Shown: in pieces, positions 41,769 through 57,856 of the stretch
How positions within the stretch are numbered: the stretch's first letter is position 1
Layout: the number at the start of each line of letters is the position of its first letter
From: Gaiellaceae bacterium
Lineage (GTDB): Bacteria > Actinomycetota > Thermoleophilia > Gaiellales > Gaiellaceae
DNA: 64,000 bases
Direction: 5' to 3'
Assembly: GCA_035652255.1 (NCBI GenBank)
Contig: DASRED010000047.1
Location: 3,695-67,694 of the forward strand
Notes under the pieces: model-generated
What the model was told of the DNA's origin: nothing
The model's input: only the letters and a program-made list of their open reading frames with translations
The model's database searches: none
Position numbers and translations under genes: made by a program

Positions 41769-43376
41769 CTACGGCTCCCGCTCGTGCGCGTCGAACTGCT
41801 CGGTGAACTGCTGGACGAAGTCCTCCTCGCTCGCGGGCTCGTCTTCCACCGCGACGGCCGTTTCACGCGCCTCGCCGAGCTCGAAGGAGACCTCGAGCCG
41901 CCGGCCGGTGACGTCGTAGAGCGCGTCCGCGAGCAGGGTCGCGTTCTTCGGGTCGCGGGCGAGGTCGAGGTGGAACTGGGCGGTGGGTGGGAACTCGAGC
42001 GTCAGCGTGTCGCCGTGGAGGTCCGCCGGATGGGCCTCGCGCAGGAGCGACGCAGTCGGGATGCCGCCGCGCTCCTCGACCGCCGGCAGCACTGTCCGCG
42101 ACCACGCCTCCTGCAGCTGCTCGAGCTCGAGGTCGGGCGGCGCAACCTCGGCCGCGGGCGCCGCCGCGGGAACGGGCGCGCTCTCGTCACTTAGTGACAA
42201 CTTGTCACTAAGTTGGACGGGGCTAGGGGGGACAGCTCCGGCCCCCTGCTCGAGGCGCTCGAGGCGGAAGGCGACGGACTCGCGCGACAGGTCGGCGGCG
42301 GGGCGCGTCACCTTGACGAGGGCGAGCTCGAGCGGCAGGCGCGGATCGCCGCCCTGGCGCATGTCGTCGACCGCGACCGCGAGGAGATCGATCAGGCGGA
42401 GAACGGCCGCCTCGCCCATCTGCGCCGCCTGCCCGAGCAGCCGCTCGCGCGTTTCCTCCGTCACGGGCAGCGCCTCGGGCACCTCGCCGAGATGCTGCAC
42501 GAGCATCAGCTGGCGGAGGTGCTCGATCAGGTCGAGGACGAGGCGGCCGAGGTCGTGCCCGCGCTCGGAGAGCTCCTCGACGAACGTGAGCGCGCCGGCC
42601 GTGTCGCGGTCGATGACGAGGTTGCAGAGCGTGAAGAGCGCCTCCTCCTCGACCGTGCCGAGCAGCTCGAGGACGGCCTGCACCGTGATCGTGCTGCCGG
42701 TGGAGGAGGCGAGCTGGTCGAGTGTCGAGACCGCGTCACGGTACGCGCCCCGCGCGCCGCGCGCGACGAGCGCGAGGGCCTGATCGGGCACGTCGACTCC
42801 CTCGGCGTCGGCGACGTGCCGCAGGACGGTGACGAGATCCTGCAGGCGCGGGCGCTGGAAGACGAACGTCTGGCAGCGCGAACGGACCGTCGGGAGCACC
42901 TTCGAGAGATCCGTCGTGCAGAAGACGAAGACGAGATGCGGCGGCGGCTCCTCGATGAGCTTCAGGAGCGCGTTCCACGCTGCGTCCGTGAGCTGGTGCG
43001 CCTCGTCGAGGATGTAGACCTTGTAGCGCCCCTCGACCGGTTGGAGAACGACCCGGTCGCGGATCTCCCGGATGTCGTCGATGCCACGCTGCGAGGCGGC
43101 GTCCATCTCGACGACGTCGAGGGAGGTCCCGGCGGCGATCGCGGCGCAGGTATGGCACGTTCCGTCGGGCGTCGTGGTCGGGCCCTGCGCGCAGTTGAGG
43201 CACTTGGCGAGGATGCGCGCCATCGACGTCTTGCCGGTGCCGCGCGGGCCGGCGAAGAGGTACGCCTGCCGGAGGGCGTCGCTCGTGATCGCGTTCGACA
43301 GCGTCCTGACGACCGCCTCCTGGCCGACGACCTCCGCGAAGCTCTGGGGACGGTACTTCCGGTAGAGAGCGGCCAC
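41769..43376 (-). CDS. dnaX: DNA polymerase III subunits gamma/tau
   Basis: GTG start (VAALYRKYRPQSFAEVVGQ) inside track ORF 41769..43556. Walker A GPRGTGKTS, ILDEAHQL, and a Cys-rich zinc module CLNCAQGPTTTPDGTCHTC. Confidence 0.9.
   Translation of the reverse strand: MAALYRKYRPQSFAEVVGQEAVVRTLSNAITSDALRQAYLFAGPRGTGKTSMARILAKCLNCAQGPTTTPDGTCHTCAAIAAGTSLDVVEMDAASQRGIDDIREIRDRVVLQPVEGRYKVYILDEAHQLTDAAWNALLKLIEEPPPHLVFVFCTTDLSKVLPTVRSRCQTFVFQRPRLQDLVTVLRHVADAEGVDVPDQALALVARGARGAYRDAVSTLDQLASSTGSTITVQAVLELLGTVEEEALFTLCNLVIDRDTAGALTFVEELSERGHDLGRLVLDLIEHLRQLMLVQHLGEVPEALPVTEETRERLLGQAAQMGEAAVLRLIDLLAVAVDDMRQGGDPRLPLELALVKVTRPAADLSRESVAFRLERLEQGAGAVPPSPVQLSDKLSLSDESAPVPAAAPAAEVAPPDLELEQLQEAWSRTVLPAVEERGGIPTASLLREAHPADLHGDTLTLEFPPTAQFHLDLARDPKNATLLADALYDVTGRRLEVSFELGEARETAVAVEDEPASEEDFVQQFTEQFDAHEREP
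42189..42223. repeat. AT-rich palindromic element, copy 2 (in-frame inside the dnaX linker)
   Basis: ACTTAGTGACAA-C-TTGTCACTAAGT, perfect 12-nt arms, followed by TGGACGGGGC. Shares a 31-mer (2 mismatches) with 11161..11191. Confidence 0.85.
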
Positions 43377-43660: not shown

Positions 43661-44263
43661 ATGGCCGACGCTCGCCGAGCTCTCCTGACCGGACTCTTCG
43701 ACCACGCGCCGATGTTCCCGCCGGCGAGCATGCCGCTCGACGAGGCGACAGAGGAGGATCGCCGCGCGCAGGCGAGCGAGCACGCCTGGCTGCTCGGGCG
43801 CTTCGTCGTCCCCGCCGGGACGGAGGTCGAGGGACGCGAGCTCGCGGTCGTCGACGGCGGCACCGAGCGCCAGGGCGAGACGGTCTTCGTCGAGGGCGTC
43901 TCGAAGATCCGGTGCGGCGGTGCGGCGATCCCCCCGGTGGACGAGGTCGCCGGCTTCGTCCGGCGCTGTCGCGACGAGGGCGTCCTTTTCAAGGCGACGG
44001 CGGGCCTCCATCACGCCTACCCGACTCCCGCCGGCGAGCACGGCTTCCTCAACCTCCTCGCCGCGGTCGTCTTCGGCGACGAGGAGGAGGCGTTGCGTGA
44101 GGGCCGCGGCGCGTTCGAGCTCGACGCCGGCTCGTTCCGCTGGCGCGGCCGCGCAGCCGGCGCCGCTGAGCTCGCCGAGATCCGCGCGTCGCTCTTCCAC
44201 TCGATCGGCAGCTGCTCGTTCTTCGAGCCGGTCGGCGAGCTCGAGGAGCTGGGAGTCATATGA
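43661..44263 (+). CDS. hypothetical protein
   Basis: 200 aa. ATGA overlap with the downstream fumarylacetoacetase gene. No domain recognised. Confidence 0.55.
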   Translation: MADARRALLTGLFDHAPMFPPASMPLDEATEEDRRAQASEHAWLLGRFVVPAGTEVEGRELAVVDGGTERQGETVFVEGVSKIRCGGAAIPPVDEVAGFVRRCRDEGVLFKATAGLHHAYPTPAGEHGFLNLLAAVVFGDEEEALREGRGAFELDAGSFRWRGRAAGAAELAEIRASLFHSIGSCSFFEPVGELEELGVI

Positions 44264-45297
44264 GCTTCGGGGCGGGGGAGAACGGCCTGCTCTGGCGGGA
44301 CGGGGCGGAGGCAGTCGACCTCTCCGGGCTCGGCGGCGTCTTTGCGGAGGCGTCGCTCAACGCGCTCTCGGCCGAGGGGCCGGCGGCGTGGGGTGAGGCG
44401 ATCGACGCGGCGCGCTCCCACGACGGCCCGCGCGTCCCTCTCACCGCAGCGCGGCTCCCGTTCGAGGTCGCGGACTACGTCGACTTCTACTCCTCGCTCG
44501 AGCACGCGACGAACCTCGGCCGGCTGTTCCGGCCCGACCAGGAGCCGCTGCTCCCCAACTGGCGCTGGCTGCCGGTCGGATACCACGGCCGCGCCGGGAG
44601 CGTCGTCGTCAGCGGCACGGACGTCGTCCGCCCGAGCGGCCAGCGGAAGGCGCCGGACGAGGACGCGCCGACGTTCGGTCCCAGCCGCCGCCTCGACTTC
44701 GAGCTCGAGCTCGGCTTCGTCGTCGGAGTCGGCAGCGAGCTCGGCGAGCCCGTGCCGGTCGAGGACTTCGAGCGGCACGTCTTCGGCGTCGTCCTCGTCA
44801 ACGACTGGAGCGCGCGGGACATCCAGGCGTGGGAGTACGTGCCGCTCGGGCCGTTCCTCGGGAAGTCGTTCCAGACCTCGATCTCCGCCTGGGTGACGCC
44901 GCTCGCTCTGCTCGAGGAGGCGCGCGTCGAGGCGCCGGAGCAGGAGCCGCCGCCGCTGCCACATCTCGCGGGCGGCCGCGACTGGGCGCTCGACCTCGCG
45001 CTCGAGGTGGAGCTGAACGGCGAGACGATCTCCGAGGGGAACGCGAGGACGCTCTACTGGACGCTGCCGCAGCAGCTTGCCCACGCGACGTCCAACGGCG
45101 CCCCGATCCGCACCGGCGACCTCATGGCGAGCGGGACGATCTCCGGCGCCGAGCCGGGGACGGAGGGCTCGATGATCGAGCTCTACCGCGGCGAGCGGTT
45201 CCTCGCGGACGGCGACGAGCTCGTGCTGCGCGGCCGGTCGGGGAACGGCGTCGAGCTCGGCGAGGTGCGCGGGCGAGTCCTGCCGGCGCGCGACTAG
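44260..45297 (+). CDS. fumarylacetoacetase (FAH family)
   Basis: 345 aa. DYVDFYSSLEHATNLG, LPVGYHGRAGSVVVSGT and DLMASGTISG are typical of fumarylacetoacetase. Confidence 0.85.
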   Translation: MSFGAGENGLLWRDGAEAVDLSGLGGVFAEASLNALSAEGPAAWGEAIDAARSHDGPRVPLTAARLPFEVADYVDFYSSLEHATNLGRLFRPDQEPLLPNWRWLPVGYHGRAGSVVVSGTDVVRPSGQRKAPDEDAPTFGPSRRLDFELELGFVVGVGSELGEPVPVEDFERHVFGVVLVNDWSARDIQAWEYVPLGPFLGKSFQTSISAWVTPLALLEEARVEAPEQEPPPLPHLAGGRDWALDLALEVELNGETISEGNARTLYWTLPQQLAHATSNGAPIRTGDLMASGTISGAEPGTEGSMIELYRGERFLADGDELVLRGRSGNGVELGEVRGRVLPARD

Positions 45298-45735: not shown

Positions 45736-46614
45736 ATGCCCGCGCTTCTCACCGGCATCCTTTCGGCGCTCGCCGCGTCGGCGCTCTTCGCGCTCGCGAT
45801 GGGTCTGCAGACGCTCGAGGCGCGGCAGGAGCCGGCCGAGCGCGCGCTCCGCTTCTCGCTCCTGCTCCGGCTCGTCCGCCGGCCGCGCTGGGTGGCGGGG
45901 ACGGCGCTCGGGATCGTCGGCTGGCTCGCCCAGGCATACGCGCTGACGAAGGCGCCGCTGACGCTCGTCCAGCCGCTGCTCGGGACGACACTCGTTTTCC
46001 TCCTGTTCGTCGCGATGCGCCAGCTCGGCGAGCACGTCGGCCGGCGCGAGACGTTCGCCGCGCTCGCCGTGGCCGGCGGCGTTCCCCTGCTCGCGGTGAC
46101 GACTCCGGCCCGCCACGCGGCGCACAGCGAGGGGGTGCGCCTCTGGGCGACGCTCGCGGTGCTCGCCGCGCTCGCGCTCGTGCCGCTCGGCCTGCGCGGC
46201 GCGATGCGCGGCGCGAGCCTCGTCGTCCCGCTCGCGGCCGGGCTCGCGTACGCGCTCGACAGTCTCGCGACGAAGTTCGCGGCGGACGACTACACGCGGA
46301 GTCTCTGGCTCGGCGCGGCGGGCTGGTTCGTGCTCATGGGCTCGGCGGGGCTCCTCGGGACGCTCGGGGAGATGTCGGCGCTGCAGAGCCGGCCCGTGAC
46401 CCACGTGGCGCCGCTCGTCTTCGCGCTCACGACGTTCGTCCCCGTCGCCCTCGCCCCGTTGCTGGCGCGCGAGTGGTGGCCGAGCTCGCCGCTGCGCACC
46501 GCCGGGCTCGTCATCGGGCTGCTCACGACCGGCGGGGGAGCGGCGGCGCTCGCCACCGTCGCCCCGGTCGGGCGCGCCTTCTCCCGCGAGGCGGCAGCCG
46601 TCCCCTCCGCCTAG
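45736..46614 (+). CDS. polytopic membrane protein, DMT/EamA/NIPA-like
   Basis: 292 aa with about 9-10 TM segments. First gene of the co-directional string with the two GT-C-like genes. Confidence 0.6.
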   Translation: MPALLTGILSALAASALFALAMGLQTLEARQEPAERALRFSLLLRLVRRPRWVAGTALGIVGWLAQAYALTKAPLTLVQPLLGTTLVFLLFVAMRQLGEHVGRRETFAALAVAGGVPLLAVTTPARHAAHSEGVRLWATLAVLAALALVPLGLRGAMRGASLVVPLAAGLAYALDSLATKFAADDYTRSLWLGAAGWFVLMGSAGLLGTLGEMSALQSRPVTHVAPLVFALTTFVPVALAPLLAREWWPSSPLRTAGLVIGLLTTGGGAAALATVAPVGRAFSREAAAVPSA

Positions 46615-46724
46615 CGAGACCGAGCGACGCTCCGCCTCTATTCAGCGGGGCCGGAGCAGGGCATACTTGGCCTTCCCGTTGTCGCCGAGGGCCGCGACAC
46701 GGCATTCCACATGGGAGCACTGCG

Positions 46725-49055
46725 ATGACCTTCACCGTGGCGTGGCTGCTGTTCCCTGTCGTGCTGGCGCTGCTCTCACTCGGCGCCGGGCTGCTCGTCG
46801 AGGCGGCGGCCGGCGTCGATCTGCCCGGGCCGCTGCTCCTGCCGGTGGGATTCGCCGGGCTGGTCGTCGTCGCCGACCTCGCCACCTTGACGGTGTTCAC
46901 GGCGCGCCTGACGCTCGAGATCGTCCTGCTGGTCGCCGTCGCAGGCGCCGTCGTCCGCCTCGAGCGGCTGCGGGCCCTCCGCCCGGCCCGCTGGGTCACG
47001 ATCGCGGCTCTCCTCGTCTTCCTCGTCTACGCCGCTCCGGTTCTCTTCACCGGCCAGGCGACGTTCGCCGGCTTCGCGACGCTCGACGACACCGTCAACT
47101 GGTTCGTCCTCACCGAGCGCGTCCTCTCGCACGGGCGCAGCTTCGCCGGGCTCGGGCCGTCCGCGTACTACACGCTCGTCCACGCGTACTTCCACACGGG
47201 CTATCCGCTCGGTGCGTTCATGCCGCTCGGCGCGGCGGCGAAGCTCGTGAACGAGAACATCGCCTGGGTCTACCAGCCGTACCTCGCCTTCCAGGGGGCG
47301 ATGCTCGCGCTCGGAGTCTGGACGATCGCCGGCGGTCTCGTGCGCTCCGTGCGCCTCCGGGCTGCGGTCGCGTTCGTCGCCGCGCAGCCCGCGCTCCTCT
47401 ACGGCTACTCGCTCCTAGGCTCGGTCAAGGAGCTCGTCACGGCGCCGCTGCTCGTGCTCGTCGCGGTCCTCGTCGCCCATGCTTACCGCACCGCGCCCTC
47501 GGGGCGGCGGCTCGTTCCGCTCGCGGTCGTGCTCGCGGCCGTGCTCGCGACGCTCAACGTGAGCGGCTTCGTCTGGCTCGCTCCGGCCCTCGTTCCGCTG
47601 CTGCTTCTCCTCCGCCGCATCTCCGCCGCGGTCTTCGGGCGGCGTGCGGCGATCCTCACGGCGGTCACGCTCGTGCTCGCCGTGCCCGCTCTCGCGACGG
47701 CAGGGAGCTTCGTGTCGAGCGCCAGCCGCCAGCTCACGAACTCGGCCCACGGCGCGAACGCGCTCGGGAGCGTGCTGTTCCACCGGCTCAGCTTTCTCCA
47801 GGTGCTCGGCGTCTGGCCGGTCGGCGACCTTCGGGTCAGCCCGGCGACGATCTGGCCGACGTACCTCCTCCTGGCGCTGCTCGTCGGGCTCGCCGCGGCC
47901 GGTCTTCGCGAAGCCTGGCTGCGCGGCGCGTTCGCGCTGCCGATCTACGTCGCGACCTGTCTGATCGGGGTCTTCATCGTCTCGCTCACCGGCTCGCCGT
48001 GGACGGTCGGGAAGGCGCTGGCGACGGCCTCGCCGGCCGTGCTCGCGCTCGGGCTCGCCGGTGCGTGCGTCTACCTCGGCCGCACCGCGGCCGGCGCCGT
48101 CGTCGCGGCCGCCGCCCTCGCCGTGACGGGAGGCGTGCTCTGGTCGAACACGCTCGCCTACAGTGGCGTGCGGCTCGCCCCACGGGCCGAGCTCGTGGAG
48201 GAGGCCCATCTCGGACAGCGCTTCGCCGGCCAGGGGCCCGCGCTGATGACCGGCTTCCAGTGGTACTACGCGCAGTACTTCCTCCACCGGCTCGCCCCGG
48301 AGTGGGTGACGCCGCAGACCGACTTCGACCAGCTGCCGATCGCCGGCGTGGAGCGTTACTCGACGCTCGTCCTCAGCCGCGGCCCGATCGCGAGCCGGCC
48401 GCCGTCTTCGTACAAGCTCGTCTGGCACGGACGCTACGACGAGGTCTGGAAGCGAGTCCGCGGCGCGCCGAGGGTCATCCAGCACGTCCCGTTCGGCAAC
48501 AACACCGAGCCGGGGGCGATCCCCAACTGCGCGAGGATCCACTCGCTCGCCCATGCCGCAGCCGCGGCGGGCGGGAAGCTCGCCTACGTCGTCCGCGCGC
48601 CCGCTCTCGTCCTCAGTCTCGACGCCGGCGGCAAGCAGCTCGGCTGGCCGTCGGACGGCTACGAGCCCTTCCCGACGAGCAGCGGGCGTATCACCTTCTC
48701 CGAGGACGTTCCGACCACGGGCACGTACACCGTCTGGATGGGCGGCTTCACCCCAGGCACGGCGACGATCTCGATCGACGGACGGACGGTCGGCTCGGCG
48801 GCGCATCTGATCGAGAAGGTCGCGCAGTACGCTCCCCTCGCCTCGGTCCACCTCGCCGCGGGCGTTCACACGATCGTCGTGAGCTACGACCGCTCGCTTC
48901 TCTCGCCGGGAAGCACCTCGCATCTCCCGTGGGGGATGGGCCCGATCGTTCTCTCCACGCAGACCGAGTTCGTGCCCGTCCACTACACGACGCCGGCGCA
49001 CGCGGCGTCTCTCTGCAAGCTGAACCTCGACTGGGCGGAGGCCGTCGCCGGGTGA
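46725..49055 (+). CDS. large polytopic membrane protein, GT-C-fold glycosyltransferase-like, paralog 1
   Basis: 776 aa from an ATG preceded by GGGAG. About 13 TM segments. Acidic loop motif ATLDDTVNWF after the early helices. C-terminal soluble domain of about 250 aa. Confidence 0.7.
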   Translation: MTFTVAWLLFPVVLALLSLGAGLLVEAAAGVDLPGPLLLPVGFAGLVVVADLATLTVFTARLTLEIVLLVAVAGAVVRLERLRALRPARWVTIAALLVFLVYAAPVLFTGQATFAGFATLDDTVNWFVLTERVLSHGRSFAGLGPSAYYTLVHAYFHTGYPLGAFMPLGAAAKLVNENIAWVYQPYLAFQGAMLALGVWTIAGGLVRSVRLRAAVAFVAAQPALLYGYSLLGSVKELVTAPLLVLVAVLVAHAYRTAPSGRRLVPLAVVLAAVLATLNVSGFVWLAPALVPLLLLLRRISAAVFGRRAAILTAVTLVLAVPALATAGSFVSSASRQLTNSAHGANALGSVLFHRLSFLQVLGVWPVGDLRVSPATIWPTYLLLALLVGLAAAGLREAWLRGAFALPIYVATCLIGVFIVSLTGSPWTVGKALATASPAVLALGLAGACVYLGRTAAGAVVAAAALAVTGGVLWSNTLAYSGVRLAPRAELVEEAHLGQRFAGQGPALMTGFQWYYAQYFLHRLAPEWVTPQTDFDQLPIAGVERYSTLVLSRGPIASRPPSSYKLVWHGRYDEVWKRVRGAPRVIQHVPFGNNTEPGAIPNCARIHSLAHAAAAAGGKLAYVVRAPALVLSLDAGGKQLGWPSDGYEPFPTSSGRITFSEDVPTTGTYTVWMGGFTPGTATISIDGRTVGSAAHLIEKVAQYAPLASVHLAAGVHTIVVSYDRSLLSPGSTSHLPWGMGPIVLSTQTEFVPVHYTTPAHAASLCKLNLDWAEAVAG

Positions 49056-51388
49056 GCCTCCTCGTCCCGTGGCTCGCGTTCCCGGTCCTCCTCGCCGTCC
49101 TCTCGCTCGGGCTCGGCCTGCTCGTGGAGGCGATCGCCGGCAGCCGGCTGCACGGCGCGCTTCTCCTCCCGGTCGGCTTCGCCGGCATCGTCGTCGTGGC
49201 GGACACGACGACGCTGAGTGCTTCCACGGCCCGCCACGTCACGCCCCTGGTCGTCGCGCTCGCCGTCGCCGGCTTCGCGCTCGCCGCCTGGGGCGACCGG
49301 CTGCGGACGCTCAGGCCGGATGCCTGGGCGGTGGGAGCCGTCGTCGCGGTCTTCGCGGTCTACGCGGCACCCGTCGTGATGCTCGGGCGGGCGACCTTCG
49401 CGGGCTACTCCTCGCTCGACGACACCGCACAGTGGTTCTCGCTCATCGACCGCGTGATGAGCTACGGGCGAAGCGCTGCCGGCCTGCCGCCGTCGACGTA
49501 CCACCACATCCTCCACGAGTACCTCCACACGGGCTACCCGGTCGGCTCGATGATCCCGCTCGGCGTCGGCGCGCGTCTCGTCGGCCGTGACGTCGCCTGG
49601 GTGCTGCAGCCGTATTTCGCCTTCGCCGCTGTCCTCCTCGGCCTCAGCCTCTGGGTCATGCTCGCGGGTCCGATCCGCTCGCGGCGCTGGCGTGCGCCCG
49701 CGGTCTTCATCGCCTCCCAGCCGGCGCTCCTCTACGGCTACGCGCTCTGGGGATCGATCAAGGAGGTCGTGACCGCCGCGCTCCTTCCCTTGCTCGCGAT
49801 CCTCGTGGCGCGCGCACTGCGCTCGACGCCGTCGGTGCGCGACCTCGTTCCGCTCGCGGTCGTCTCGGCGGCCGTGCTCGCGGCGCTGAACCTCGCCGCG
49901 CTCGTCTGGCTCGTGCCGGCTCTGTTGCCGCTCGTCGTCGTGGCGCGCAGGATCCCGGCGCAGGCGTTCGCGCGGCGCACCGCCGGATTCGTCGCCTGCA
50001 TCGCCGTCCTCGCTCTGCCGACCCTCGCCGTGGCCCGGACGTTCACCGCCGCGGCGAACCACAACCTCGCGGCTGGCGCGCACGGCCTGAACGAGCTCGG
50101 CGAGCTGAAGCATCCGCTCAGCGTCCTCCAGCTGCTCGGGATCTGGCCGGTCGGAGACTTCCGCAACAGCCCGCGCACGTTCTGGCCCACCGGGCTGCTG
50201 CTCGCTCTCCTCCTCCTCCTCGCGGTCGGCGGGCTCGTCGTCGCGGTGCGCCGGCGCGCCTGGAGCCTGCCGCTCTACGTCACGATGGCTGTCGTCGGGT
50301 GGCTGGCGCTCAGAGTGGGCGGGACTCCGTGGACGATCGGGAAGGAGCTCGCGACGGCGTCGCCGGCTCTGCTCGCGGCTGCCTTCGGCGGCATCGGCCT
50401 TCTCGCGGCGCGCCGCGGCCGGCCGGCGCTCGTGGCCGGAGCTGCGGCCGTCGCGCTCGCCGGAGGAGTGCTCTGGTCGAACGCGCTCGCCTACAGCGGC
50501 GCCCGTCTCGCGCCGAACGACCAGCTCGCCGAGCTCGACCTGATCGGCCACGAGTTCGCGGGTCAGGGCCCGACGCTGATGACCGAGTTCCAGCCGTACG
50601 GCGTCCGCCACTTCCTCCGCGAGCTCGCCGTCTCCCAGCTGCCGCCGAAGAACATCGACGCGTTCCCGCTCGCCGAGGTGGAGAGCTTCCGGACACTCGT
50701 GCTCGACCACTCGCCGCTCGAGAGCCGCCCGCCGGCGAACTACCGGCTGGCCCGCGCCGGCCGCTTCTACGACGTCTGGCAGCGCATCCCCGGCGTCCCG
50801 CGACCGCTGCAGCAGATCGCGCTCGGACAGGGCATCCAGCCGGCCGGAACGCTCGCCTGCAGCCGGATCGTGAGCGTCGCACGCGTCGCGACGCAGCGGC
50901 ACGAGCGCCTCGCGACGGTGCTACGGCCCGCTGCGCTCGGCTTCGAGCTCGGCGCGGCGCAGCACCCGGCTGCGTGGACAATCGATCCGTCCGGCGGCGT
51001 CTACCCGACGAGCGCCGGCACCGTCGTGAGCTCGGTGGCCGTCCCGGCTGCCGGCCGCTACGGCGTCTGGGTCGGCGGCTACACGCCCGGCCGACTCACG
51101 GTCACGGTGGACGGCGACACCGTCGGCTCGGTCGTCCACCGGATCGAGCTGCCCGGCCAGTACTACCCCGTGGGCTGGATTCAGCTGACGCGCGGCCGGC
51201 ACCGGATCGTCCTCGGCTACTCGCGCCCGCTCCTGCAGCCGGGCAGCACGTCGGGCACCGCGCAGCTGCCGATGGGCCCGCTTGTCGTGTCGAGGGATAC
51301 CGAGGATCTGCCGGTGACGTACGTCCGGCCTGTCCGCGCGCACACGCTCTGCGGCCGGAGCCTCGACTGGCTCGAGGTCGTCCGATAG
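49052..51388 (+). CDS. large polytopic membrane protein, GT-C-fold glycosyltransferase-like, paralog 2
   Basis: 778 aa, GTG start with GTGA overlap with paralog 1. Same architecture, with SSLDDTAQWF. Roughly half of the N-terminal residues are identical to paralog 1 by eye. Confidence 0.7.
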   Translation: MSLLVPWLAFPVLLAVLSLGLGLLVEAIAGSRLHGALLLPVGFAGIVVVADTTTLSASTARHVTPLVVALAVAGFALAAWGDRLRTLRPDAWAVGAVVAVFAVYAAPVVMLGRATFAGYSSLDDTAQWFSLIDRVMSYGRSAAGLPPSTYHHILHEYLHTGYPVGSMIPLGVGARLVGRDVAWVLQPYFAFAAVLLGLSLWVMLAGPIRSRRWRAPAVFIASQPALLYGYALWGSIKEVVTAALLPLLAILVARALRSTPSVRDLVPLAVVSAAVLAALNLAALVWLVPALLPLVVVARRIPAQAFARRTAGFVACIAVLALPTLAVARTFTAAANHNLAAGAHGLNELGELKHPLSVLQLLGIWPVGDFRNSPRTFWPTGLLLALLLLLAVGGLVVAVRRRAWSLPLYVTMAVVGWLALRVGGTPWTIGKELATASPALLAAAFGGIGLLAARRGRPALVAGAAAVALAGGVLWSNALAYSGARLAPNDQLAELDLIGHEFAGQGPTLMTEFQPYGVRHFLRELAVSQLPPKNIDAFPLAEVESFRTLVLDHSPLESRPPANYRLARAGRFYDVWQRIPGVPRPLQQIALGQGIQPAGTLACSRIVSVARVATQRHERLATVLRPAALGFELGAAQHPAAWTIDPSGGVYPTSAGTVVSSVAVPAAGRYGVWVGGYTPGRLTVTVDGDTVGSVVHRIELPGQYYPVGWIQLTRGRHRIVLGYSRPLLQPGSTSGTAQLPMGPLVVSRDTEDLPVTYVRPVRAHTLCGRSLDWLEVVR

Positions 51389-51408: not shown

Positions 51409-52191
51409 ATGGCGTGGCTGCAGGGCCTCGACCAGGCGCCGCTCCTCGTCCGGCGCTGTGTCGAGTCGTGGCGGCGGCACAACCCGGGCTGGGACGTGCG
51501 CGTCCTCAGCGAGGCGGACATGAGCCGTCACACGAGCTTCGACCACACGGTCGGGCCGGTGGCGGGCCAGGCCGTCTCCCACCGGACGGATCTTCTCCGC
51601 ACGGACCTGCTCGCGACCCACGGCGGCGTCTGGGCCGACGCGACCTGCTACTGCACGCGGCCCCTGGACGACTGGCTGCCGGCAGCGGTCGACCCGTCGG
51701 GCTTCTTCGCGTTTGCGCGGCCGGGATTCGACCGGCCCATCTCGAGTTGGTTCCTCGCCGCCCGCCCCGGCAATCTCGCCGTCACCCGCCTGCGCGACTT
51801 CCTCCGGGATCACATGGCGCGGCCGCTGCGTCCGGCTCCGCGGCCGCTCGTGGGGCTCCTGATGCTGACGCCCTTCACGCGTGGGCTCTGGTTCTCGCGG
51901 CTCATTCGCGACCGGCTCGGGGTCGAGCCCTACTACGCGATCCACTACGCCTTCGAGCTCCTGCTGCGGACGGATCCGGCGTTCGCCCGCGTCTGGCAGG
52001 AGACACCCACGGTCAGCGCCCGGCCGTTGCACGCGCTCCTGTGGGGCGGATTGACGCGGCCGCTGACCGGGGAGCTCGAGCGGGAGATCGAGGGAGCGAC
52101 GGTGCCGATGCACAAGCTCACCTTCAAGTTCGACGAGAGCGACGTCCCACCCGGGAGCGTCCTCGAGCGTCTCCTCCGCGACGGGCCGTAG
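51409..52191 (+). CDS. Caps_synth/Och1-like glycosyltransferase
   Basis: HRTDLLRTDLLATHGGVWADAT resembles the sugar-binding DXD-region family. The conserved VPRVVW lies upstream of the first ATG, so the true start is probably non-canonical (in-frame CTG at 51367). Confidence 0.6.
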   Translation: MAWLQGLDQAPLLVRRCVESWRRHNPGWDVRVLSEADMSRHTSFDHTVGPVAGQAVSHRTDLLRTDLLATHGGVWADATCYCTRPLDDWLPAAVDPSGFFAFARPGFDRPISSWFLAARPGNLAVTRLRDFLRDHMARPLRPAPRPLVGLLMLTPFTRGLWFSRLIRDRLGVEPYYAIHYAFELLLRTDPAFARVWQETPTVSARPLHALLWGGLTRPLTGELEREIEGATVPMHKLTFKFDESDVPPGSVLERLLRDGP

Positions 52192-52197
52192 CCCGGC

Positions 52198-53658
52198 TCA
52201 GCGGGCGAGGACGGCGCGCACCACGTCGCGAGGCAGAGCGCCGCTGAACCACGCGAGCGCGACGAACATCGCGACTGCGAGACACGCGGCCGGCCCCGCG
52301 GGGATCGCGGAGACGAACGCCGGCCAGGCGGAGACCGCGCCGCAGGCGAGCAGTGTCGCTGCCGCCCCGAGCTTCGGCCGCAGCGCGGGCCGCGCCCGGA
52401 CGAGCGCCGTCAGCCCTGCCGCCGCGATCGTCGCCTCGCCGAGCACCGCCGCGACGGCGGCGCCGGTGATCCCGAAGAACACGATGAGCGGCCCGCCCGC
52501 GACGGCGGCCATCGCGAGCCCGCACAGGCTCACCGCGATCCGGGCCCGCTGCCGATGGACGGCGACGAGAGCCGGCAGCCAGACGAGCCCGAGAAACGTC
52601 CCGAACATCGCGAACGCCTGGATCCGCAGCGCTCTCGCGGCGCCGGCATAGCCGCTGCCGCCGAGCAGGACGGCGATCGGCCGCGCGGCGATCGCGAAGA
52701 TGAGGGCGCCGGCGACGGCGAGGAACACCGCCACCTCGAAGAGTTGCTGGAGCGCGAACGCGAGCCGCTCCTCGTCCTCGTCGCCGCTCGCCCGCGCGAG
52801 GATCGGGAACGCCGACGAGAACGCGATCGCGGCGCCGGTCGCGAGCACCTGCAGGACGCGGTTCGAGAGGGCGTAAAGGCCGGTGTCCGTCCGTCCGGTG
52901 GCGAGCGAGACGATGATCAGGAGGAGGCGGAGATAGACGGAGCCGATGACGGTTGCGATGCCGAGCGGCAACGCGTCGATGAGGAGCGGTCGCCACCGCT
53001 GCCACGAGAAGCGCGGCGCGATCGACGAGACGCCTGCCACCGAGAGCGCGAAGACGAGGACCGCCAGAGCGGCGATGGTCGGGACGGCGAGAAACGGCAG
53101 GAGTGTGGCGCCGGCGAGGACGAGACCGAGCAGACCCAGGCCGGTGACGACGTCCCGTACGAGGCCGGCCGTGGTGAGAATGCCGAACCGGAGCTGCGTG
53201 GTCGCGGGCAACAGAGCCGTCTGCCAGAGGTCGACGAGCAGGACGCCGAGGGCTCCGATCGCGACTCCCTCGACCATCGTCCGGTCGTAGCCCGCGACGA
53301 GGGCGAAGGTGACGGCGATGACCGCGGCGGCCGGGGCGAGCACGATGCGGAGCCCGGCGACGTGCGCCTGCAGCTCCCTCCGCTCCGCCTCGCCGCGCAG
53401 CGTCGCGAAGTCGCGCTGGGAGACGACCGCGACGCCGGCGTCCGCGAGCGCTCCCGTCACCGCCGCGATCGAGATGACCGTCGCGTAGCGGCCGTAGTCG
53501 CCGGCGCCGAGGTAGCGGAGCAGGACGATCGTCGACACGATGCCGACCGCCGTGCCGACGAAGTAGCCGACGGTGCGCACGATCCCGCCGCGGATCGCGA
53601 CGCGGCCGGCGGCCGGCAGGTCGAGGACGTCCGGGTGGAGGTCGCCGTCCGTCGTCAT
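52198..53658 (-). CDS. Wzx-type polysaccharide flippase (MOP/PST family)
   Basis: 486 aa from the internal ATG of track ORF 52198..55083. About 14 TM segments. ATGA overlap with the upstream GT4 gene. Confidence 0.78.
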   Translation of the reverse strand: MTTDGDLHPDVLDLPAAGRVAIRGGIVRTVGYFVGTAVGIVSTIVLLRYLGAGDYGRYATVISIAAVTGALADAGVAVVSQRDFATLRGEAERRELQAHVAGLRIVLAPAAAVIAVTFALVAGYDRTMVEGVAIGALGVLLVDLWQTALLPATTQLRFGILTTAGLVRDVVTGLGLLGLVLAGATLLPFLAVPTIAALAVLVFALSVAGVSSIAPRFSWQRWRPLLIDALPLGIATVIGSVYLRLLLIIVSLATGRTDTGLYALSNRVLQVLATGAAIAFSSAFPILARASGDEDEERLAFALQQLFEVAVFLAVAGALIFAIAARPIAVLLGGSGYAGAARALRIQAFAMFGTFLGLVWLPALVAVHRQRARIAVSLCGLAMAAVAGGPLIVFFGITGAAVAAVLGEATIAAAGLTALVRARPALRPKLGAAATLLACGAVSAWPAFVSAIPAGPAACLAVAMFVALAWFSGALPRDVVRAVLAR

Positions 53659-54800
53659 CGGTCGCCGTAGAACGCGGCGACACGCTCGAGCGAGGCAGCG
53701 AGCGAGAGGCGCTCGGCGTTCTCCGCGTACCAGGCGCGCGTCGACCGCCGCAGCTCGGGCCCCGCCTCGTGGACGCGCACGATCGCGTCGGCGAGATCCG
53801 CTGCGCCGTCCGACGGAGCGGCGAAGCCGTTGACTCCTTCCTCGACGAGCTCCACGGCGGCATTCTCGTCGCCGCGGACGACGATGCTCGGCACGCCCGC
53901 GGCGGCCGCCTCGACGACGATGCGGCCGTAGCCCTCGCGGCGCGACGGGAGCGCGAGGCAGAGAGCCCGGCCGAGCGACGCGGCGAGGCGCTCGGGCTCG
54001 ACGAAGCCGGGAGCCTCGACACTCCCGGTGAGGCCGTGCGCCTCGATCGCGGCGAGGAGCGCCGCGTGATCCGGCCCGTCGCCGAACAGGTCGGCGCGGA
54101 GGTCGGGGATCCGCTGCTTCGCCTGCGCAAGTGCGGGCACGAGGCTGAGGACGCGCTTCTCGGCGACCTGCCTGCCGGCGAAGACGACGGTCGGCTCGGC
54201 CTCCGTCTCGGCCGGTGGCGGTGCTGTGCCGCCGTACTGTCCCGTGAGCCGTACGACCGGTCCGCGAACGCCGTGCTCGAGCAGCCGCGCCTCGTGGAGC
54301 CGCGAGAAGCAGAACGCCTGCTGCCTCGGCAGCAGGCAGAGCTTCTGGACGAGCCAGCCGACATCGCCCTTGCGCCGTCCGAGGTAGTCGCGCCAGTACG
54401 CGCGCGTCCAGAGCTCGTGCCAGTCGACGGCGAGCGCGTAGCGGCCGAACGGCCGTGCAGCGGCGGCGGCGAGCAGCGAGAAGTACGGGAAGGACGCGGT
54501 GTGGACGGCGTCGTAGCGCCCGCCGTGCCGGAGGAGATGCCGGAGGACGCCGAGCCCGAAGAACAGCGCCTCGTCGATTCGTCGCGTGCCCCAGTCGTCG
54601 TAGAGCGGCCGCGGCCTGTCCACCCCGACGACGCGGACGCCGGCCAGGGTCGGCTCCTCGCCGCGCTCCCACTGCCGGCGGGTCAGGTACGTGACCTCGT
54701 GGCCCCGCTCCGCGAGCCCCTGCGCGAGATCGGCGTACCAGCGCTCCGCTCCGCCGATCGTGTACGGATAGAGGCAGTCGTAGACGATGCAGATCCGCAT
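53655..54800 (-). CDS. glycosyltransferase family 4 (GT-B)
   Basis: 381 aa. MRICIVYDCLYPYTIGGAERWY N-terminus, and C-terminal EGYGRIVVEAAAAGVPSIV. Confidence 0.85.
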   Translation of the reverse strand: MRICIVYDCLYPYTIGGAERWYADLAQGLAERGHEVTYLTRRQWERGEEPTLAGVRVVGVDRPRPLYDDWGTRRIDEALFFGLGVLRHLLRHGGRYDAVHTASFPYFSLLAAAAARPFGRYALAVDWHELWTRAYWRDYLGRRKGDVGWLVQKLCLLPRQQAFCFSRLHEARLLEHGVRGPVVRLTGQYGGTAPPPAETEAEPTVVFAGRQVAEKRVLSLVPALAQAKQRIPDLRADLFGDGPDHAALLAAIEAHGLTGSVEAPGFVEPERLAASLGRALCLALPSRREGYGRIVVEAAAAGVPSIVVRGDENAAVELVEEGVNGFAAPSDGAADLADAIVRVHEAGPELRRSTRAWYAENAERLSLAASLERVAAFYGDR

Positions 54801-54862: not shown

Positions 54863-56044
54863 ATGACCGAGCTCGACGAGATCCCAGCCGGCGGGACGGC
54901 GACGGCGACGGCGCCCCGCGTGTCGATCGTCATCCCCTGCCTGAACGAGGCGGAGCACATCGAGGAGTGCGTCGCGCGGGCTCGGGAGGCCCTCGAGGCG
55001 GGCGGTCTCGACGGCGAGATCATCGTCGTCGACAACGGCTCGGAGGACGACAGCGGAGCGCTCGCGCGGGCTGCCGGCGCCACCGTGGTCGACGAGCCCC
55101 GCCGTGGCTACGGCAGCGCCTACCTCGCGGGCTTCGCGGCTGCGCGGGGCGACTACCTCGTGATGATCGACGCCGATCTCACGTACGACTTCGCCGAGAT
55201 CCCCGGCTTCGTCCGCAAGCTCGACGACGGCGCGCAGCTCGTCATGGGGAACCGGATGGCGGGGATCCAGGCCGGCGCGATGCCCTGGCTCAACCGGTAC
55301 ATCGGCAATCCGCTCCTCTCGGGCTTCCTCAACCTCATCTACAAGACCCCGATCGCCGACGCCCACTGCGGCATGCGCGCGCTGCGGCGCGACGCCCTGC
55401 CGACGCTGCGGCTGCACTCGACCGGCATGGAGTTCGCGTCGGAGATGGTCATCCGGGCGGCGAAGGAGCGTCTCGTGATCGCGCAGGTGCCGATCGCGCT
55501 CCATCCGCGCAGCGGTGTCTCGAAGCTCTCGCCGTTCCGCGACGGCTGGCGCCATCTGAGGCTGATGCTCGTCCACAGCCCGACGTTCCTGTTCATCGTG
55601 CCGGGTGCCGTGCTCTCGATCGTGGGCATGCTCGTGATCGCTCTCGTCTTCGCGGGCGCCTCGCTCTTCGGCCGCGTCCTCTACCTCCACTCGCTGATCG
55701 GCGGCGCGCTACTTCTGATGGTTGGCTCCCAGGTCGTCGGGCTCGGGCTGTGCGGCTGCGCGTACGGCGTCCATCACCTCGGCGAGAGGAACGCCTGGTT
55801 CGAGCGCGCCCGGCGCCGGGTCAGCCTCGAGCAGGGATTGCTGGCGGGAACCGTCGTCACGCTCGCCGGGCTCGCCGCCGGCGCGGCGATCGTCGTGCAC
55901 TGGGCCGGCCACGATTTCGGCTCGCTCGGAGAGGGCCGCCTCGCGATCCTCGCCGCGACGCTCGTCGTCGTCGGACTGCAGATCGTCTTCACGTCCTTCC
56001 TCCTCTCGATCATCGGGATGGGCGGGAGCGAGCGACCTCGCTGA
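54863..56044 (+). CDS. GT2 polyprenyl-phosphate sugar synthase-like glycosyltransferase with C-terminal TM helices (DPM1/GtrB/ArnC-like)
   Basis: 393 aa. VSIVIPCLNEAEHI, VVDNGSEDDS, MIDADLTYD, then about 4 C-terminal TM segments. Confidence 0.82.
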   Translation: MTELDEIPAGGTATATAPRVSIVIPCLNEAEHIEECVARAREALEAGGLDGEIIVVDNGSEDDSGALARAAGATVVDEPRRGYGSAYLAGFAAARGDYLVMIDADLTYDFAEIPGFVRKLDDGAQLVMGNRMAGIQAGAMPWLNRYIGNPLLSGFLNLIYKTPIADAHCGMRALRRDALPTLRLHSTGMEFASEMVIRAAKERLVIAQVPIALHPRSGVSKLSPFRDGWRHLRLMLVHSPTFLFIVPGAVLSIVGMLVIALVFAGASLFGRVLYLHSLIGGALLLMVGSQVVGLGLCGCAYGVHHLGERNAWFERARRRVSLEQGLLAGTVVTLAGLAAGAAIVVHWAGHDFGSLGEGRLAILAATLVVVGLQIVFTSFLLSIIGMGGSERPR

Positions 56045-56939
56045 GGCGCTCCCGAGCGACGGCGCCGTAGGGGAACGTCCGGGCCCGGACCCAGAGGTCG
56101 AGGACGACATCGCGGGCGTCCTCGAGCGGGGGCCGGCGTCGGAGCGCGGAGTCGCGGCGGAACCGCTCGAGGAGAACCTCCGTCTGCTCGTCCGTCTGCT
56201 GCCGTAGCTCCGGCTCGGGCACGTCGGCGGCGGGGAGGGCGTCGCCGCTGACCTGCTCCACGAGAGAGGAGATCGTCGCCGGATACGCCGCGACGAGCTC
56301 CTCGTACGTCAGCTCGACCACGGGCACGGCGCCGCGGGCGAGCGCCTCCGCCCAGAGCGCGTCGTCGCGGAGAATCGCGGTCCTCAGCCGGCTGATCGCG
56401 CGGAAGTTGTACGGCACCTCGGGCCGGGCCCCGGCCGCCTCGCCGGCGCCGCGATGCCAGGCGCCCGTGTACGCCGCCTTCCAGTAGGAGACGGCCTGCC
56501 GGTCGGCGTCCGCTCTCCGCATGTGGACGTACGTCGCGTCGGGAAAGAGCTCGGCGAGCAGCGTCAGCGCGGCGGAAGGCTCGACCGTGCGGCGGGCCGT
56601 GCGGTTGGTCTCCCGCCGGAGCTCGTCGAGGTGCGACCAGTGGAGCTTCGCGCCAAAAACCCCGTTCGCGGAGGAGCGGCGCGCGCGCAGCTCTCGCACG
56701 TACGCGCCGAGATCGCCCCTCGTGCCCCAGCGCGCGGCGAGCGTGGCGCGGAAGCCGATGTTGAAGTACTCCGTCGGCGTCCCCGCCAGGCCGGTGCGGT
56801 GCAGCCCCGAGCAGAGCAGCGTGCTCCCGCTTCGCGGCGTCGAGCAGACGAGATACGTCCTGGACGCCGAGCCGGGGTCGCGCGGAGGGGTCACGTCGAA
56901 TTCGGCCGCCAGCATCGGACGCGTTGCAGTCCGTCTCAT
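56010..56939 (-). CDS. Stf0-like sulfotransferase
   Basis: 309 aa. PAPS-loop-like YLVCSTPRSGSTLLCSGLHRTGLAGTPTEYFN. The 3' end overlaps the convergent GT2 gene by 35 nt. Confidence 0.68.
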   Translation of the reverse strand: MRRTATRPMLAAEFDVTPPRDPGSASRTYLVCSTPRSGSTLLCSGLHRTGLAGTPTEYFNIGFRATLAARWGTRGDLGAYVRELRARRSSANGVFGAKLHWSHLDELRRETNRTARRTVEPSAALTLLAELFPDATYVHMRRADADRQAVSYWKAAYTGAWHRGAGEAAGARPEVPYNFRAISRLRTAILRDDALWAEALARGAVPVVELTYEELVAAYPATISSLVEQVSGDALPAADVPEPELRQQTDEQTEVLLERFRRDSALRRRPPLEDARDVVLDLWVRARTFPYGAVARERLSEVARSRPSR

Positions 56940-56983: not shown

Positions 56984-57856
56984 TCAGCGCTTGGCGAACA
57001 GCCCGCGGAAGCGGCCGCGCGACATTGCGCCGTAGAAGCGCGCGCGCCCGGGCTCGCCGCGCATCAGGAAGTAGGCGGAGCCCGCCGCTAGCTGTGCGGC
57101 GCGCCAGGCGGCGTACCGGCGCGGGAAGCGGTACTGCGTCAGCAGGCGCGTGTGGTCGCGTCCGTAGACGTACGCCTTGCGGGCGGCCGCGTCGTCGCCG
57201 AGCCTCGGATGGAAGTCGGGATGCCCGATGCGGATGCTCGGCTCGTAGCCGACGGTCAGGCCACGGGAGAGTGCGCGCAGGATGTACTCGCCGTCCTGGC
57301 CGCCGCCGGCGATCAGCTCGCCGTCGGGCCCGAGGCGGGTGCTGTACGACTCGTCCCATTCGCCGACCGTCCCGATCGCCCGGCCGCGGATGAAGAACGT
57401 GAACCCGATCGCCCTGCGCCAGAGATTGCGCGGGGTGACGAGACCGCCTTCGCTGTCCCACCTGAGCTGGGTCGGGCGTCCCTCGTCGTCGCAGCTCGTT
57501 CCGGACAGCGCATCCCAGTCTGGGTGCTCGGCGAAGGCGCGCAGCACGCGCTCGACCGTGTCCGGCGCGTACCAGCAGTCGTCGTCCGGCCGGCCGACGA
57601 CGTCCGCCGTGGCGCGGGCGAAGCCGGCGTTGCAGGCCCGGCTGAGGCCGCGCGGCGAACGGAGATGCTCGAGGTCGAGTCGTCCCTCGAACGCGGCGAC
57701 GACCGGCGCGAGCCGGTCGTCCTCGTTCTGGTCGACGACGAGCACGCGGAGCGGGCCGCGCCAGGTCTGCTCCGCGACGCTCGCGAGGAAGCGCTCGAGC
57801 TCCGCCGTCCGGCCGACCGTCGGGACGACGAGGTCTATGGACGACGGCTCGTCCAG
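56984..57856 (-). CDS. glycosyltransferase family 2
   Basis: Track ORF 56984..57745 begins at VLVVDQNEDD. The conserved GT2 N-terminus IDLVVPTVGRTAELERFLASVAEQTW is encoded in-frame upstream with no ATG, GTG or TTG. The only candidate start is CTG at 57856. DDDCWY DXD motif. Confidence 0.65.
   Translation of the reverse strand: MDEPSSIDLVVPTVGRTAELERFLASVAEQTWRGPLRVLVVDQNEDDRLAPVVAAFEGRLDLEHLRSPRGLSRACNAGFARATADVVGRPDDDCWYAPDTVERVLRAFAEHPDWDALSGTSCDDEGRPTQLRWDSEGGLVTPRNLWRRAIGFTFFIRGRAIGTVGEWDESYSTRLGPDGELIAGGGQDGEYILRALSRGLTVGYEPSIRIGHPDFHPRLGDDAAARKAYVYGRDHTRLLTQYRFPRRYAAWRAAQLAAGSAYFLMRGEPGRARFYGAMSRGRFRGLFAKR

Follow-up and report, generated by a model that had tools for sequence, protein, structure and literature searches.

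Background

Extracytoplasmic glycosylation by a polyprenyl-phosphate glycosyltransferase (GT), a flippase and a transferase of the GT-C class follows the same logic in a series of three-component systems, i.e. GtrABC, ArnC/EF/T, CsbB/GtcA/YfhO, GacI/J-GacK-GacL and the system of the GT136 enzyme of Citrobacter youngae. In the Gac system the Wzx-type protein GacK is the proposed flippase and GacL the GT-C enzyme (PMC8035078), and the GT136 enzyme ORF12 of C. youngae consists of 11 transmembrane (TM) spans and a C-terminal carbohydrate-binding module (CBM) which binds the acceptor glycan (PMC11127046). A C-terminal CBM is also present in mycobacterial EmbB, which has 15 TM helices, the first two of them extra to the typical 11-helix GT-C fold, and an adjacent pair of aspartates (D285/D286; D293/D294 in EmbC) (PMC7341804). 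In haloarchaeal N-glycosylation by the Agl proteins (AglJ, AglG/I/E, AglR, AglB and AglS), two GT-C enzymes act in one pathway (PMC3871713). Three-component extracytoplasmic glycosylation and GT-C enzymes with C-terminal CBMs are therefore already established. What is new in the locus described here, which lies in a 64,000-nucleotide stretch of the genome of a Gaiellaceae bacterium (contig DASRED010000047.1; the window in the following), is a large, unannotated and Thermoleophilia-specific family of proteins with a predicted GT-C fold, its recurring tandem pair of an A-type and a B-type gene (genes A and B in the window), and an unusual block of partner genes encoding a membrane-bound GT2, a GT4 and a Wzx-like protein.

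In soil, Thermoleophilia (Gaiellales, Solirubrobacterales) rank among the most abundant Actinomycetota, yet to our knowledge their cell envelope is almost unexplored. We consider it probable (roughly 60%) that A and B are GT-C glycosyltransferases which, on the outer side of the membrane, use a polyprenyl-phosphate sugar and transfer it onto an envelope glycan, with the membrane GT2 supplying the donor and the Wzx-like protein acting as flippase. The known concept of three-component glycosylation is left unchanged by this family. Its recognition as GT-C provides a handle on the synthesis of envelope glycans in Thermoleophilia and a candidate for a new CAZy GT family, together with testable residues (D121/D122, K235/E236, D368/R370 and K430, in gene A numbering) and partner genes (the ArnC-type GT2 and the Wzx-GT4 unit).

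Compared with the known systems, A and B share with the mycobacterial EmbA/B/C and AftD (GT53) and AftA enzymes the origin from Actinomycetota, extra N-terminal helices in front of an 11-TM core (predicted for A and B), an adjacent aspartate pair as conserved or catalytic motif and a C-terminal beta-sandwich CBM. AftD, EmbB and AftA are among the best structural matches of A and B, and a polyprenyl-monophosphate sugar is the expected donor in both cases. In contrast, there is no detectable sequence similarity between the two groups (Pfam and NCBIfam at E <= 1); the mycobacterial enzymes comprise 1000-1400 amino acids (aa), whereas A and B have about 780 aa and are devoid of an N-terminal CBM. 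The donor synthase linked to A and B is a GT2 of the ArnC/DPMS type, with no sign of a decaprenyl-phosphoribose/arabinose route in the island, and the A/B family is restricted to Thermoleophilia among the loci listed. With respect to the three-component systems, A and B belong to none of their sequence families, and the likeness to ORF12 lies in the described architecture only (a core of about 11 TMs plus a C-terminal CBM). Furthermore, the transferase is duplicated in tandem, the GT4 gene is linked to the GT2 gene as tightly as the flippase gene is, only a minority of the family loci have the trio together, and the island contains no small flippase of the GtrA or SMR type. Finally, the island and the Agl pathway have in common a membrane-spanning GT2 of the AglJ kind, additional soluble GTs, a flippase resembling Wzx and two GT-C proteins. 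Yet A and B are not homologs of STT3/AglB by sequence, the host is a bacterium, and the match of the GT2 to AglJ falls far short of the equivalog cut-off (168 against 325 bits).

Genes A and B encode paralogous proteins with a predicted GT-C fold

The G+C content of the window is about 72%, and many long open reading frames (ORFs) in it are spurious for this reason. A 1573-aa ORF in the mechanical ORF list (46667..51388), for example, is the gene B frame read open backwards through gene A. Genes were called with a frame plot of third-position G+C (GC3) and a codon-position gene caller; the plot shows coding in frame 0 at about 46.7-49.05 kb and in frame 2 at 49.05-51.39 kb, corresponding to genes A and B (Table 1). 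A preliminary description of the window had proposed two adjacent, translationally coupled genes of about 777 aa, paralogous to each other, with about half of the residues identical over the N-terminal 250 aa and with the acidic loop motifs ATLDDTVNWF and SSLDDTAQWF, respectively. This is what we found: proteins of 776 and 778 aa, a GTGA tetranucleotide (49052-49055) that is common to the stop codon of gene A (TGA) and the start codon of gene B (GTG), both LDD motifs as described, and 51% identity over 783 columns (BLASTP, E = 0), with 58% for residues 1-250, 56% for the membrane domain and 45% for the C-terminal domain.

AlphaFold2 (AF2) models were built from alignments of 44-46 homologs and obtained a predicted local distance difference test score (pLDDT) of 89.5 and a predicted template modelling score (pTM) of 0.91 for protein A, and 88.5 and 0.90 for protein B. 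Both models were compared with the Protein Data Bank (PDB) using Foldseek at a threshold of E <= 1e-3. All 15 matches of protein A are GT-C enzymes, among them human, canine and yeast STT3, Caenorhabditis elegans DPY19, AftD, EmbB and PglB (E = 1e-6 to 8e-4). The same is true for the 13 full-length matches of protein B, where AftA ranks first (4e-6), followed by STT3, ALG12, PglB and DPY19; its seven other matches are small CBM6/MiXBM modules. The probability of the GT-C matches was 1.00 throughout, with template modelling scores (TM-scores) of 0.35-0.52 normalised to the target. Structures of Wzy, WaaL, SEDS proteins or ligases were not among the matches of either model at this threshold. The predicted models thus place A and B securely in the GT-C fold class, i.e. 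with the GT-C-like transferases suggested earlier, and not with O-antigen polymerases or ligases.

The preliminary description did not recognise the two proteins as members of a named family, and neither did profile searches: there was no match to A or B in Pfam and NCBIfam at E <= 1. Models without a match include PMT_2/PMT (PF02366, PF13231), YfhO (PF09586), DUF2142, GT87 (PF09594), STT3 (PF02516), Emb/AftD-type (EmbC-like) models and Wzy_C (PF04932), several of which had been named as candidates. A profile made from 44 sequences also gave no match for the membrane domain when run against all PDB sequences at E <= 10. A WWDYG-type motif is absent from the conserved columns of the family, the nearest being W473-S474-N475 at the end of the last TM. 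The likeness of A and B to STT3/PglB/AglB (GT66) is at the level of the fold only.

The large C-terminal soluble domain noted previously comprises about 300 residues in both proteins. In the model of protein A it consists of an alpha/beta part (481-650) and a beta-sandwich (650-776) which resembles CBM6/CBM35/MiXBM modules. The sandwich shows a sequence-profile match to the xanthan-binding module MiXBM (7ehg, E = 0.0019), and by Foldseek it was matched to 7ehg, 2cdo and 2cdp with E-values between 1.4e-3 and 4e-3. The corresponding CBM6/35-like domain of protein B was matched by Foldseek to 2cdp, 2cdo, 7ehg and 2vzp at 3.5e-4 to 1.3e-3, with target-normalised TM-scores of at most 0.66.

Architecture, conserved residues and topology

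In the models (gene A numbering), the N-terminal helices 2-29, 35-53 and 63-84 and an Arg-rich loop (78-88) are followed by TM 89-109 and a 70-residue loop (110-178; the DD loop), which begins with a short strand and L120-D121-D122. The two aspartates close a 13-residue stretch after TM 89-109, and helices 123-136, 147-158 and 163-174 lead to TM 179-202. The middle part of the membrane domain consists of this TM, TMs 209-231 and 234-256, a 37-residue helix (261-297) and helices 301-318 and 320-336; a partly disordered loop (337-376) then precedes four tightly packed TMs (377-399, 404-422, 425-450 and 456-480). Thirteen long hydrophobic helical elements are located before residue 481, which agrees with the approximately 13 TM segments counted from sequence before, except that one of them (301-336) is interrupted and falls into two or three parts, which is why we count 14 membrane spans instead. 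The predicted architecture would thus comprise about three extra N-terminal helices and an 11-helix GT-C core, 14 TMs in all.

Conservation was scored over 331 family sequences in gene A numbering. K235, E236, W364, R558 and P559 are conserved in 100% of them, D122 and K430 in 99.7%, D368 in 99.4%, R370 in 99.1% and D121 in 91.5%, and the cysteine pair C602 and C764, the latter located within the beta-sandwich of protein A, in about 99%. Every invariant residue is kept in both A and B, and neither of the two therefore looks like a dead enzyme. W364, D368 and R370 belong to a flexible conserved loop preceding the last four helices. An acidic pair in a long loop that follows a TM helix, with an Arg-rich loop before and juxtamembrane helices after it, represents the usual GT-C layout, and D121/D122 would be expected to line the active-site cavity.

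Lys and Arg, counted as family averages, concentrate in the short loops 78-88, 203-212, 257-262, 398-403 and 451-455. According to the positive-inside rule these loops are cytoplasmic, which would place the DD loop (as the first long extracytoplasmic loop), loop 337-376 and the C-terminal domain outside; an extracytoplasmic LDDT loop had been expected in the preliminary description. The conserved cysteine pair in the C-terminal domain also agrees with an extracytoplasmic location.

Gene A contains insertions of one to four residues at positions 84-85, 257-258, 292, 296, 341-344 and 455, all in loops or helix ends, which are missing from 79-92% of the family members; this pattern is consistent with A being the faster-evolving paralog. 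Covariation calculated by mean-field direct coupling analysis (331 sequences, Meff about 250-260) was rejected as evidence on the topology and on helix 261-297 because the top couplings either flank these insertions or are implausible (453-664).

A large family restricted to Thermoleophilia

A word-indexed search retrieved 560 homologs of about 780-800 aa, all of which are unnamed and without a precomputed Pfam domain. An exhaustive profile search of 1.84 billion representatives yielded 3418 clusters (50% identity) at E <= 1e-3; at least 1469 match strongly (E <= 1e-30). The family occurs in varied contexts, sometimes with two copies per locus, and has no name in family databases. No bridge to a named family was present among the best 150 of the 3418 profile matches, all of which are clear full-length or partial members. 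When one genome per GTDB species was scanned, at least 531 family loci were confirmed. Of these, 79 are listed and form the basis of the counts given below, which refer to 80 loci where the window is included; the contig with loci L003 and L004 was rescanned as L009, and the one with L006 and L007 as L010. All 79 listed loci are from Thermoleophilia-type metagenome-assembled genomes (Gaiellaceae, Solirubrobacterales, Thermoleophilaceae and unclassified Actinomycetes), and among them the family was found only in soil Thermoleophilia.

Gene B is 64-69% identical to the relatives P0003-P0008 and those in L001 and L006, and 64-66% to the single-copy gene in L001, L006 and L010. Gene A is about 50% identical to all relatives except P0001 (81%). 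Judged by these identities, gene B is the conserved ortholog and gene A an older, diverged paralog. In a rough neighbour-joining tree, gene A groups with the first and gene B with the second copy of the tandem pair in L009, which suggests that the duplication into A-type and B-type genes predates this lineage.

A membrane-bound GT2 and its partner genes are linked to the family

The GT2 encoded distal to gene B had been described as resembling polyprenyl-phosphate sugar synthases with C-terminal TM helices. Indeed, its catalytic and interface regions match the structures of ArnC (9hwj, 1.9e-19) and Pyrococcus furiosus DPMS (5mlz, 6.8e-19), and four TM spans follow at the C-terminus. Among NCBIfam models AglJ is the best match (2.9e-49), followed by Dol-P-hexose transferase (DPhHxTase), PpgS and ArnC, all below their equivalog cut-offs. 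These matches identify the protein as a polyprenyl-phosphate glycosyltransferase of the ArnC/DPMS/AglJ type, and its linkage to genes A and B suggests a polyprenyl-phosphate sugar as their donor. A search for literature on PF26629 (GT2_TM_C) found none. The gene is divergent from that of a GT4, the stop codon of which overlaps the start codon of the gene encoding the Wzx-like protein (53655-53658), indicating translational coupling. In addition to the matches given in Table 1, the Wzx-like protein matches MatE (3.7e-5) and WZX_like (NF041503, 1.4e-5).

Homologs of these three genes recur in the loci of the closest relatives, where the membrane GT2 is 63-80%, the GT4 61-72% and the Wzx-like protein 64-66% identical to that in the window. 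Orthologs of the GT2 were found in L001, L003/4, L005 and L006/7 at a distance of 0-8 kb from family members, and their identity exceeds that of the neighbouring GT-C genes (40-66%). For the GT4, identity is 72% in L001, L006 and L007 and 61% in L003 and L004. For the Wzx-like protein, the above identity holds for L001, L006 and L010, with 41% in L011 and 37% for a weaker homolog in L076; L005 contains a Wzx annotated by Pfam. None of the loci of the closest relatives contains the DMT-like, FAA hydrolase, GT32 or Stf0 gene of the window. The conservation of a DMT + GT-C + GT2 trio, as put forward in the preliminary description, holds for its GT2 part, although not universally: 19 of the 79 related loci, or 20 of 80 if the window is counted, have an ArnC-like GT2 within 10 kb, in several unrelated arrangements. 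It does not hold for the DMT part (1 of 79).

Proposed mechanism and alternative explanations

In the mechanism we propose, the membrane GT2 would load a sugar from a nucleotide sugar onto polyprenyl phosphate at the membrane's cytoplasmic face. The lipid-linked sugar would then be flipped, most likely by the Wzx-like protein as the putative flippase and not by the DMT-like protein, and on the outer side A and B would attach it to a glycan or lipoglycan of the envelope. The CBM-like domain might hold the acceptor glycan, like that of EmbC, AftD and the GT136 enzyme (PMC11127046), D122 could function as catalytic base, and K235, R370 and K430 could bind phosphate. The two paralogs would probably differ in acceptor site or linkage; two acceptors or two linkages had been suggested for the duplication in the preliminary description. 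Several observations weigh against this mechanism. The TM-scores to solved GT-C enzymes (0.35-0.52) are modest, and the best-matching GT-C family differs between A and B, so that no specific subfamily can be assigned. The long helix 261-297 has Arg clusters at both ends, and the DD loop and the C-terminal domain are on the same side of the membrane only if 301-318 and 320-336 are two spans or if 261-297 forms a hairpin. Sixty of the 79 family loci are without an ArnC-like GT2 within 10 kb, and Wzx homologs are present in only three of them (L010, L011 and L076; 4 of 80 with the window). In addition, the GT4 that is tightly coupled to Wzx, the other soluble GTs and the sulfotransferase of the island are better suited to assembling a lipid-linked oligosaccharide than to a decoration with single sugars.

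An oligosaccharide could be transferred en bloc, with A and/or B acting as oligosaccharyltransferase or glycan ligase and handing it to an acceptor in the wall or to a protein, in the manner of haloarchaeal AglB. The AglJ-like GT2 would start the glycan on polyprenyl monophosphate, the GT4, the GT32-like protein and the second GT2 would extend it in the cytoplasm, the Stf0 protein would sulfate it, and the Wzx-like protein would flip it. We regard this, the main rival explanation, as unlikely. Neither a phosphoglycosyl transferase (Bac_transf, Glycos_transf_4) nor Wzy is encoded in the island, which leaves the membrane GT2, with AglJ as its best NCBIfam match, as the only enzyme that could use the lipid carrier. 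The usual substrates of Wzx proteins are oligosaccharide units, and here the gene is coupled with that of a GT4 and divergent beside the GT2, a block that is kept in L001, L006/7 and L011 (GT4 and GT2 only in L003/4); a different GT4 is found beside family members in L034, L052 and L085. In most family loci, however, a GT4 or Wzx gene is missing nearby. The additional soluble GTs and the sulfotransferase would find a role in glycan assembly, and the Agl pathway likewise contains AglJ, further GTs, the Wzx-like AglR and GT-C enzymes (PMC3871713), but the CBM6/35-like domain of A and B points to a glycan and not to a peptide as acceptor. Similarly, while STT3 chains are at the top of the Foldseek list of protein A, the first match of protein B, AftA, is a single-sugar transferase, and neither protein shows an STT3/PglB signature, i.e. 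a match to PF02516 at E <= 1 or a WWDYG-type motif. More doubtful still is the extended version of this idea, according to which the island would be the bacterial counterpart of the Agl pathway, the new GT-C family would consist of oligosaccharyltransferases or glycan ligases, and A and B would serve different acceptors. It is also highly improbable that A and B are not glycosyltransferases at all but Wzy/WaaL-like polymerases or ligases, or membrane scaffolds without enzymatic function which bind glycans via the CBM-like domain. The family has no functional annotation, and the island contains a Wzx-like gene but no annotated Wzy. Nevertheless, Wzy, WaaL and SEDS structures were absent from the Foldseek matches at E <= 1e-3 and Wzy_C from those in Pfam, and near-invariant residues at the predicted interface of membrane and outer space (D122, K235, E236, D368, R370 and K430) are what is expected of a catalytic site.

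The flippase partner suggested in the preliminary description was not the Wzx-like protein but the DMT-like permease encoded upstream of gene A. Lipid-linked sugars are flipped by small DMT/SMR-type proteins, e.g. ArnE/F. The DMT-like gene is on the same strand as gene A and ends 110 nt upstream of it, and a promoter and terminator scan of this intergenic region found no terminator-like site (RNA folding was likewise uninformative). The protein probably belongs to the DMT superfamily, its own matches being weak and below cut-off (NF038012, 2.8e-7, 30 bits with a cut-off of 50; EamA, 0.0045), whereas its relatives have precomputed Pfam matches to EamA (PF00892) or NIPA (PF05653) and are named DMT-like permeases. 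Yet, with eight clear and one or two weaker hydrophobic segments by hydropathy, it has about 10 TMs and resembles EamA/NIPA carriers but not the 4-TM ArnE/F or GtrA type. Moreover, a homolog is located near a family member in only one of the 79 loci (L011), 9 kb from the GT-C gene. In the window, the DMT-like gene is the last gene of a housekeeping block consisting of asd, ask, a recR-like and a ybaB-like gene, dnaX, a gene encoding 183 aa, an FAA hydrolase gene and a gene encoding 112 aa. Orthologs with 67-82% identity terminate the same asd-ask-recR-ybaB-dnaX, FAA-hydrolase, DMT block in L088, L089 and L090, where they are followed by an acetyltransferase/MFS pair or an MGDG-synthase gene and by no GT-C gene. 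This synteny in other genomes indicates that the adjacency of the DMT-like gene marks the edge of the glycosylation island. We therefore rejected it as flippase gene and judge it not to be part of the glycosylation system; a role of the permease in flipping polyprenyl-phosphate sugar is largely refuted by synteny and extremely unlikely.

Other genes of the island and of related loci

Table 1. Position of genes and protein features discussed in the text (coordinates refer to the window)
Feature	Coordinates	Strand	Evidence and remarks
dnaX	41769..43376	-	upstream housekeeping block
FAA hydrolase	44260..45297		upstream housekeeping block
Putative DMT-superfamily permease, 292 aa	45736..46614	+	weak DMT models; annotations of relatives
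Gene A, GT-C-fold membrane protein, 776 aa	46725..49055	+	ATG start; Shine-Dalgarno-like GGGAG about 8 nt upstream
LDDTVNWF motif of gene A (residues 120-127), codons of L120-D121-D122	47082..47090	+	translation
Beta-sandwich of gene A, residues ~650-776	48672..49052	+	resembles CBM6/CBM35/MiXBM
Gene B, GT-C-fold membrane protein, 778 aa	49052..51388	+	GTG start; Shine-Dalgarno-like GGAGG 10 nt upstream
LDDTAQWF motif of gene B (residues 122-129), codons of L122-D123-D124	49415..49423	+	translation
CBM6/35-like beta-sandwich of gene B (C-terminal)	51005..51385	+	Foldseek
GT32-like glycosyltransferase (Caps_synth, DXD region)	51409..52191	+	PF05704 4.9e-34; PF04488 2.9e-6
Wzx-like MOP-family flippase candidate, 486 aa, ~12 TM	52198..53658	-	PF01943 2.4e-10; PF13440 6e-10
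GT4 glycosyltransferase	53655..54800	-	PF00534 1.2e-23
Membrane GT2, four C-terminal TM spans	54863..56044	+	PF00535 3.8e-29
Stf0-type sulfotransferase	56010..56915	-	PF09037 1e-34; NF047724 2.1e-33, below cut-off
Second, soluble GT2 (GT2b)	56984..57856	-	PF00535 3.6e-13
219-aa membrane-anchored extracytoplasmic protein, weakly DcrB-like	57867..58526	-	PF08786 0.0022
HNH-endonuclease/ResIII-helicase fusion	61952..63715		

The GT32-like gene begins 21 nt past gene B, with which it probably forms an operon; it was not found in related loci. The Stf0 gene, which is of the trehalose-2-sulfotransferase-like type, is convergent with the membrane GT2 gene and overlaps its 3' end by 35 nt. Its product is a possible glycan-modifying enzyme of the island. 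Three other loci (L002:4492-5196, L005:5168-5773 and L008:1-542) also have sulfotransferase-family genes at a distance of up to 10 kb from family members, the calls in L002 and L005 being faint Pfam matches, and their recurrence hints at a sulfated glycan.

Homology of the second GT2 extends about 35 codons upstream of its first canonical start codon (57745) and includes the conserved strand DLVVPTVGR; in a tblastn search, the homolog from L011 covered 56990..57844 in a single frame. The upstream stretch is open but contains no ATG, GTG or TTG, and a CTG is present at about 57856. Possible causes are the use of a non-canonical start, loss of the start codon or an error in the sequence. The 219-aa protein encoded next to it recurs beside family members in L003/L004 (L009), L006/L007 (L010, two copies) and L045; by tblastn, the homologs in L003 and L004 are 40% and those in L006 and L007 30% identical to it.

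In other family loci, the same logic is represented by different genes. On a complete Solirubrobacterales chromosome (L064:10001-18639), the order is GT-C, 12-TM protein, GT2, GT2, GT-C, where the 12-TM protein (492 aa) has no Pfam match; this is a candidate for a compact three-component operon with a possibly novel flippase. In L008:5606-12367, L014:5418-12361 and L018, genes for a GFO/MocA oxidoreductase, a hexapeptide acetyltransferase, a soluble GT2, a DegT aminotransferase and an LPG_synthase_TM protein directly precede the GT-C gene, which implies that the donor is an acetamido sugar and that an MprF-type flippase domain replaces Wzx. By analogy, this arrangement would resemble an Arn-like amino-sugar route. 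LPG_synthase_TM proteins occupy the flippase position in other loci, too. An orthologous group comprising L020, L028, L038 and about 11 other loci occupies a constant place among housekeeping genes (rpsA, coaE, SLT-type lytic transglycosylase, GT-C, uvrB ... uvrA), with the GT-C gene directly after the transglycosylase gene.

The commonest neighbour encodes a small membrane-anchored secreted protein, termed c1, and immediately precedes the family gene in the same orientation in 40-43 of the 80 loci (e.g. L011:9461-9985, L045:9380-9955, L012:9574-9996 and about 40 others). The protein has no Pfam match and consists of 140-320 aa with an N-terminal membrane anchor and a conserved domain of about 130 aa containing the motif PIYWAGP..YELT..VRYLP..GGG..EVYDP. 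A hidden Markov model search of the six-frame translation did not detect c1 in the window, and by hhalign it is unrelated to the DcrB-like cluster of the 219-aa protein. In the loci where it occurs, c1 might be an acceptor of the GT-C enzyme or one of its subunits.

A scan for tRNA genes as an integration site of the island found none in the 64-kb window. Downstream of the gene for the 219-aa protein, gene calls on the two strands are in conflict: a 694-aa ORF (58646-60730, - strand) shows matches to Bactofilin (4.4e-8) and collagen repeats (1.1e-7), and the opposite call (59004-60038, + strand), which encodes 344 aa and has no Pfam match, is preferred by the codon-position caller. Between 60000 and 64000 the G+C content decreases from about 72% to 62-66%, and this region, which contains short unannotated ORFs and the HNH-endonuclease/ResIII-helicase fusion, is possibly a mobile or defence element that bounds the glycosylation island.

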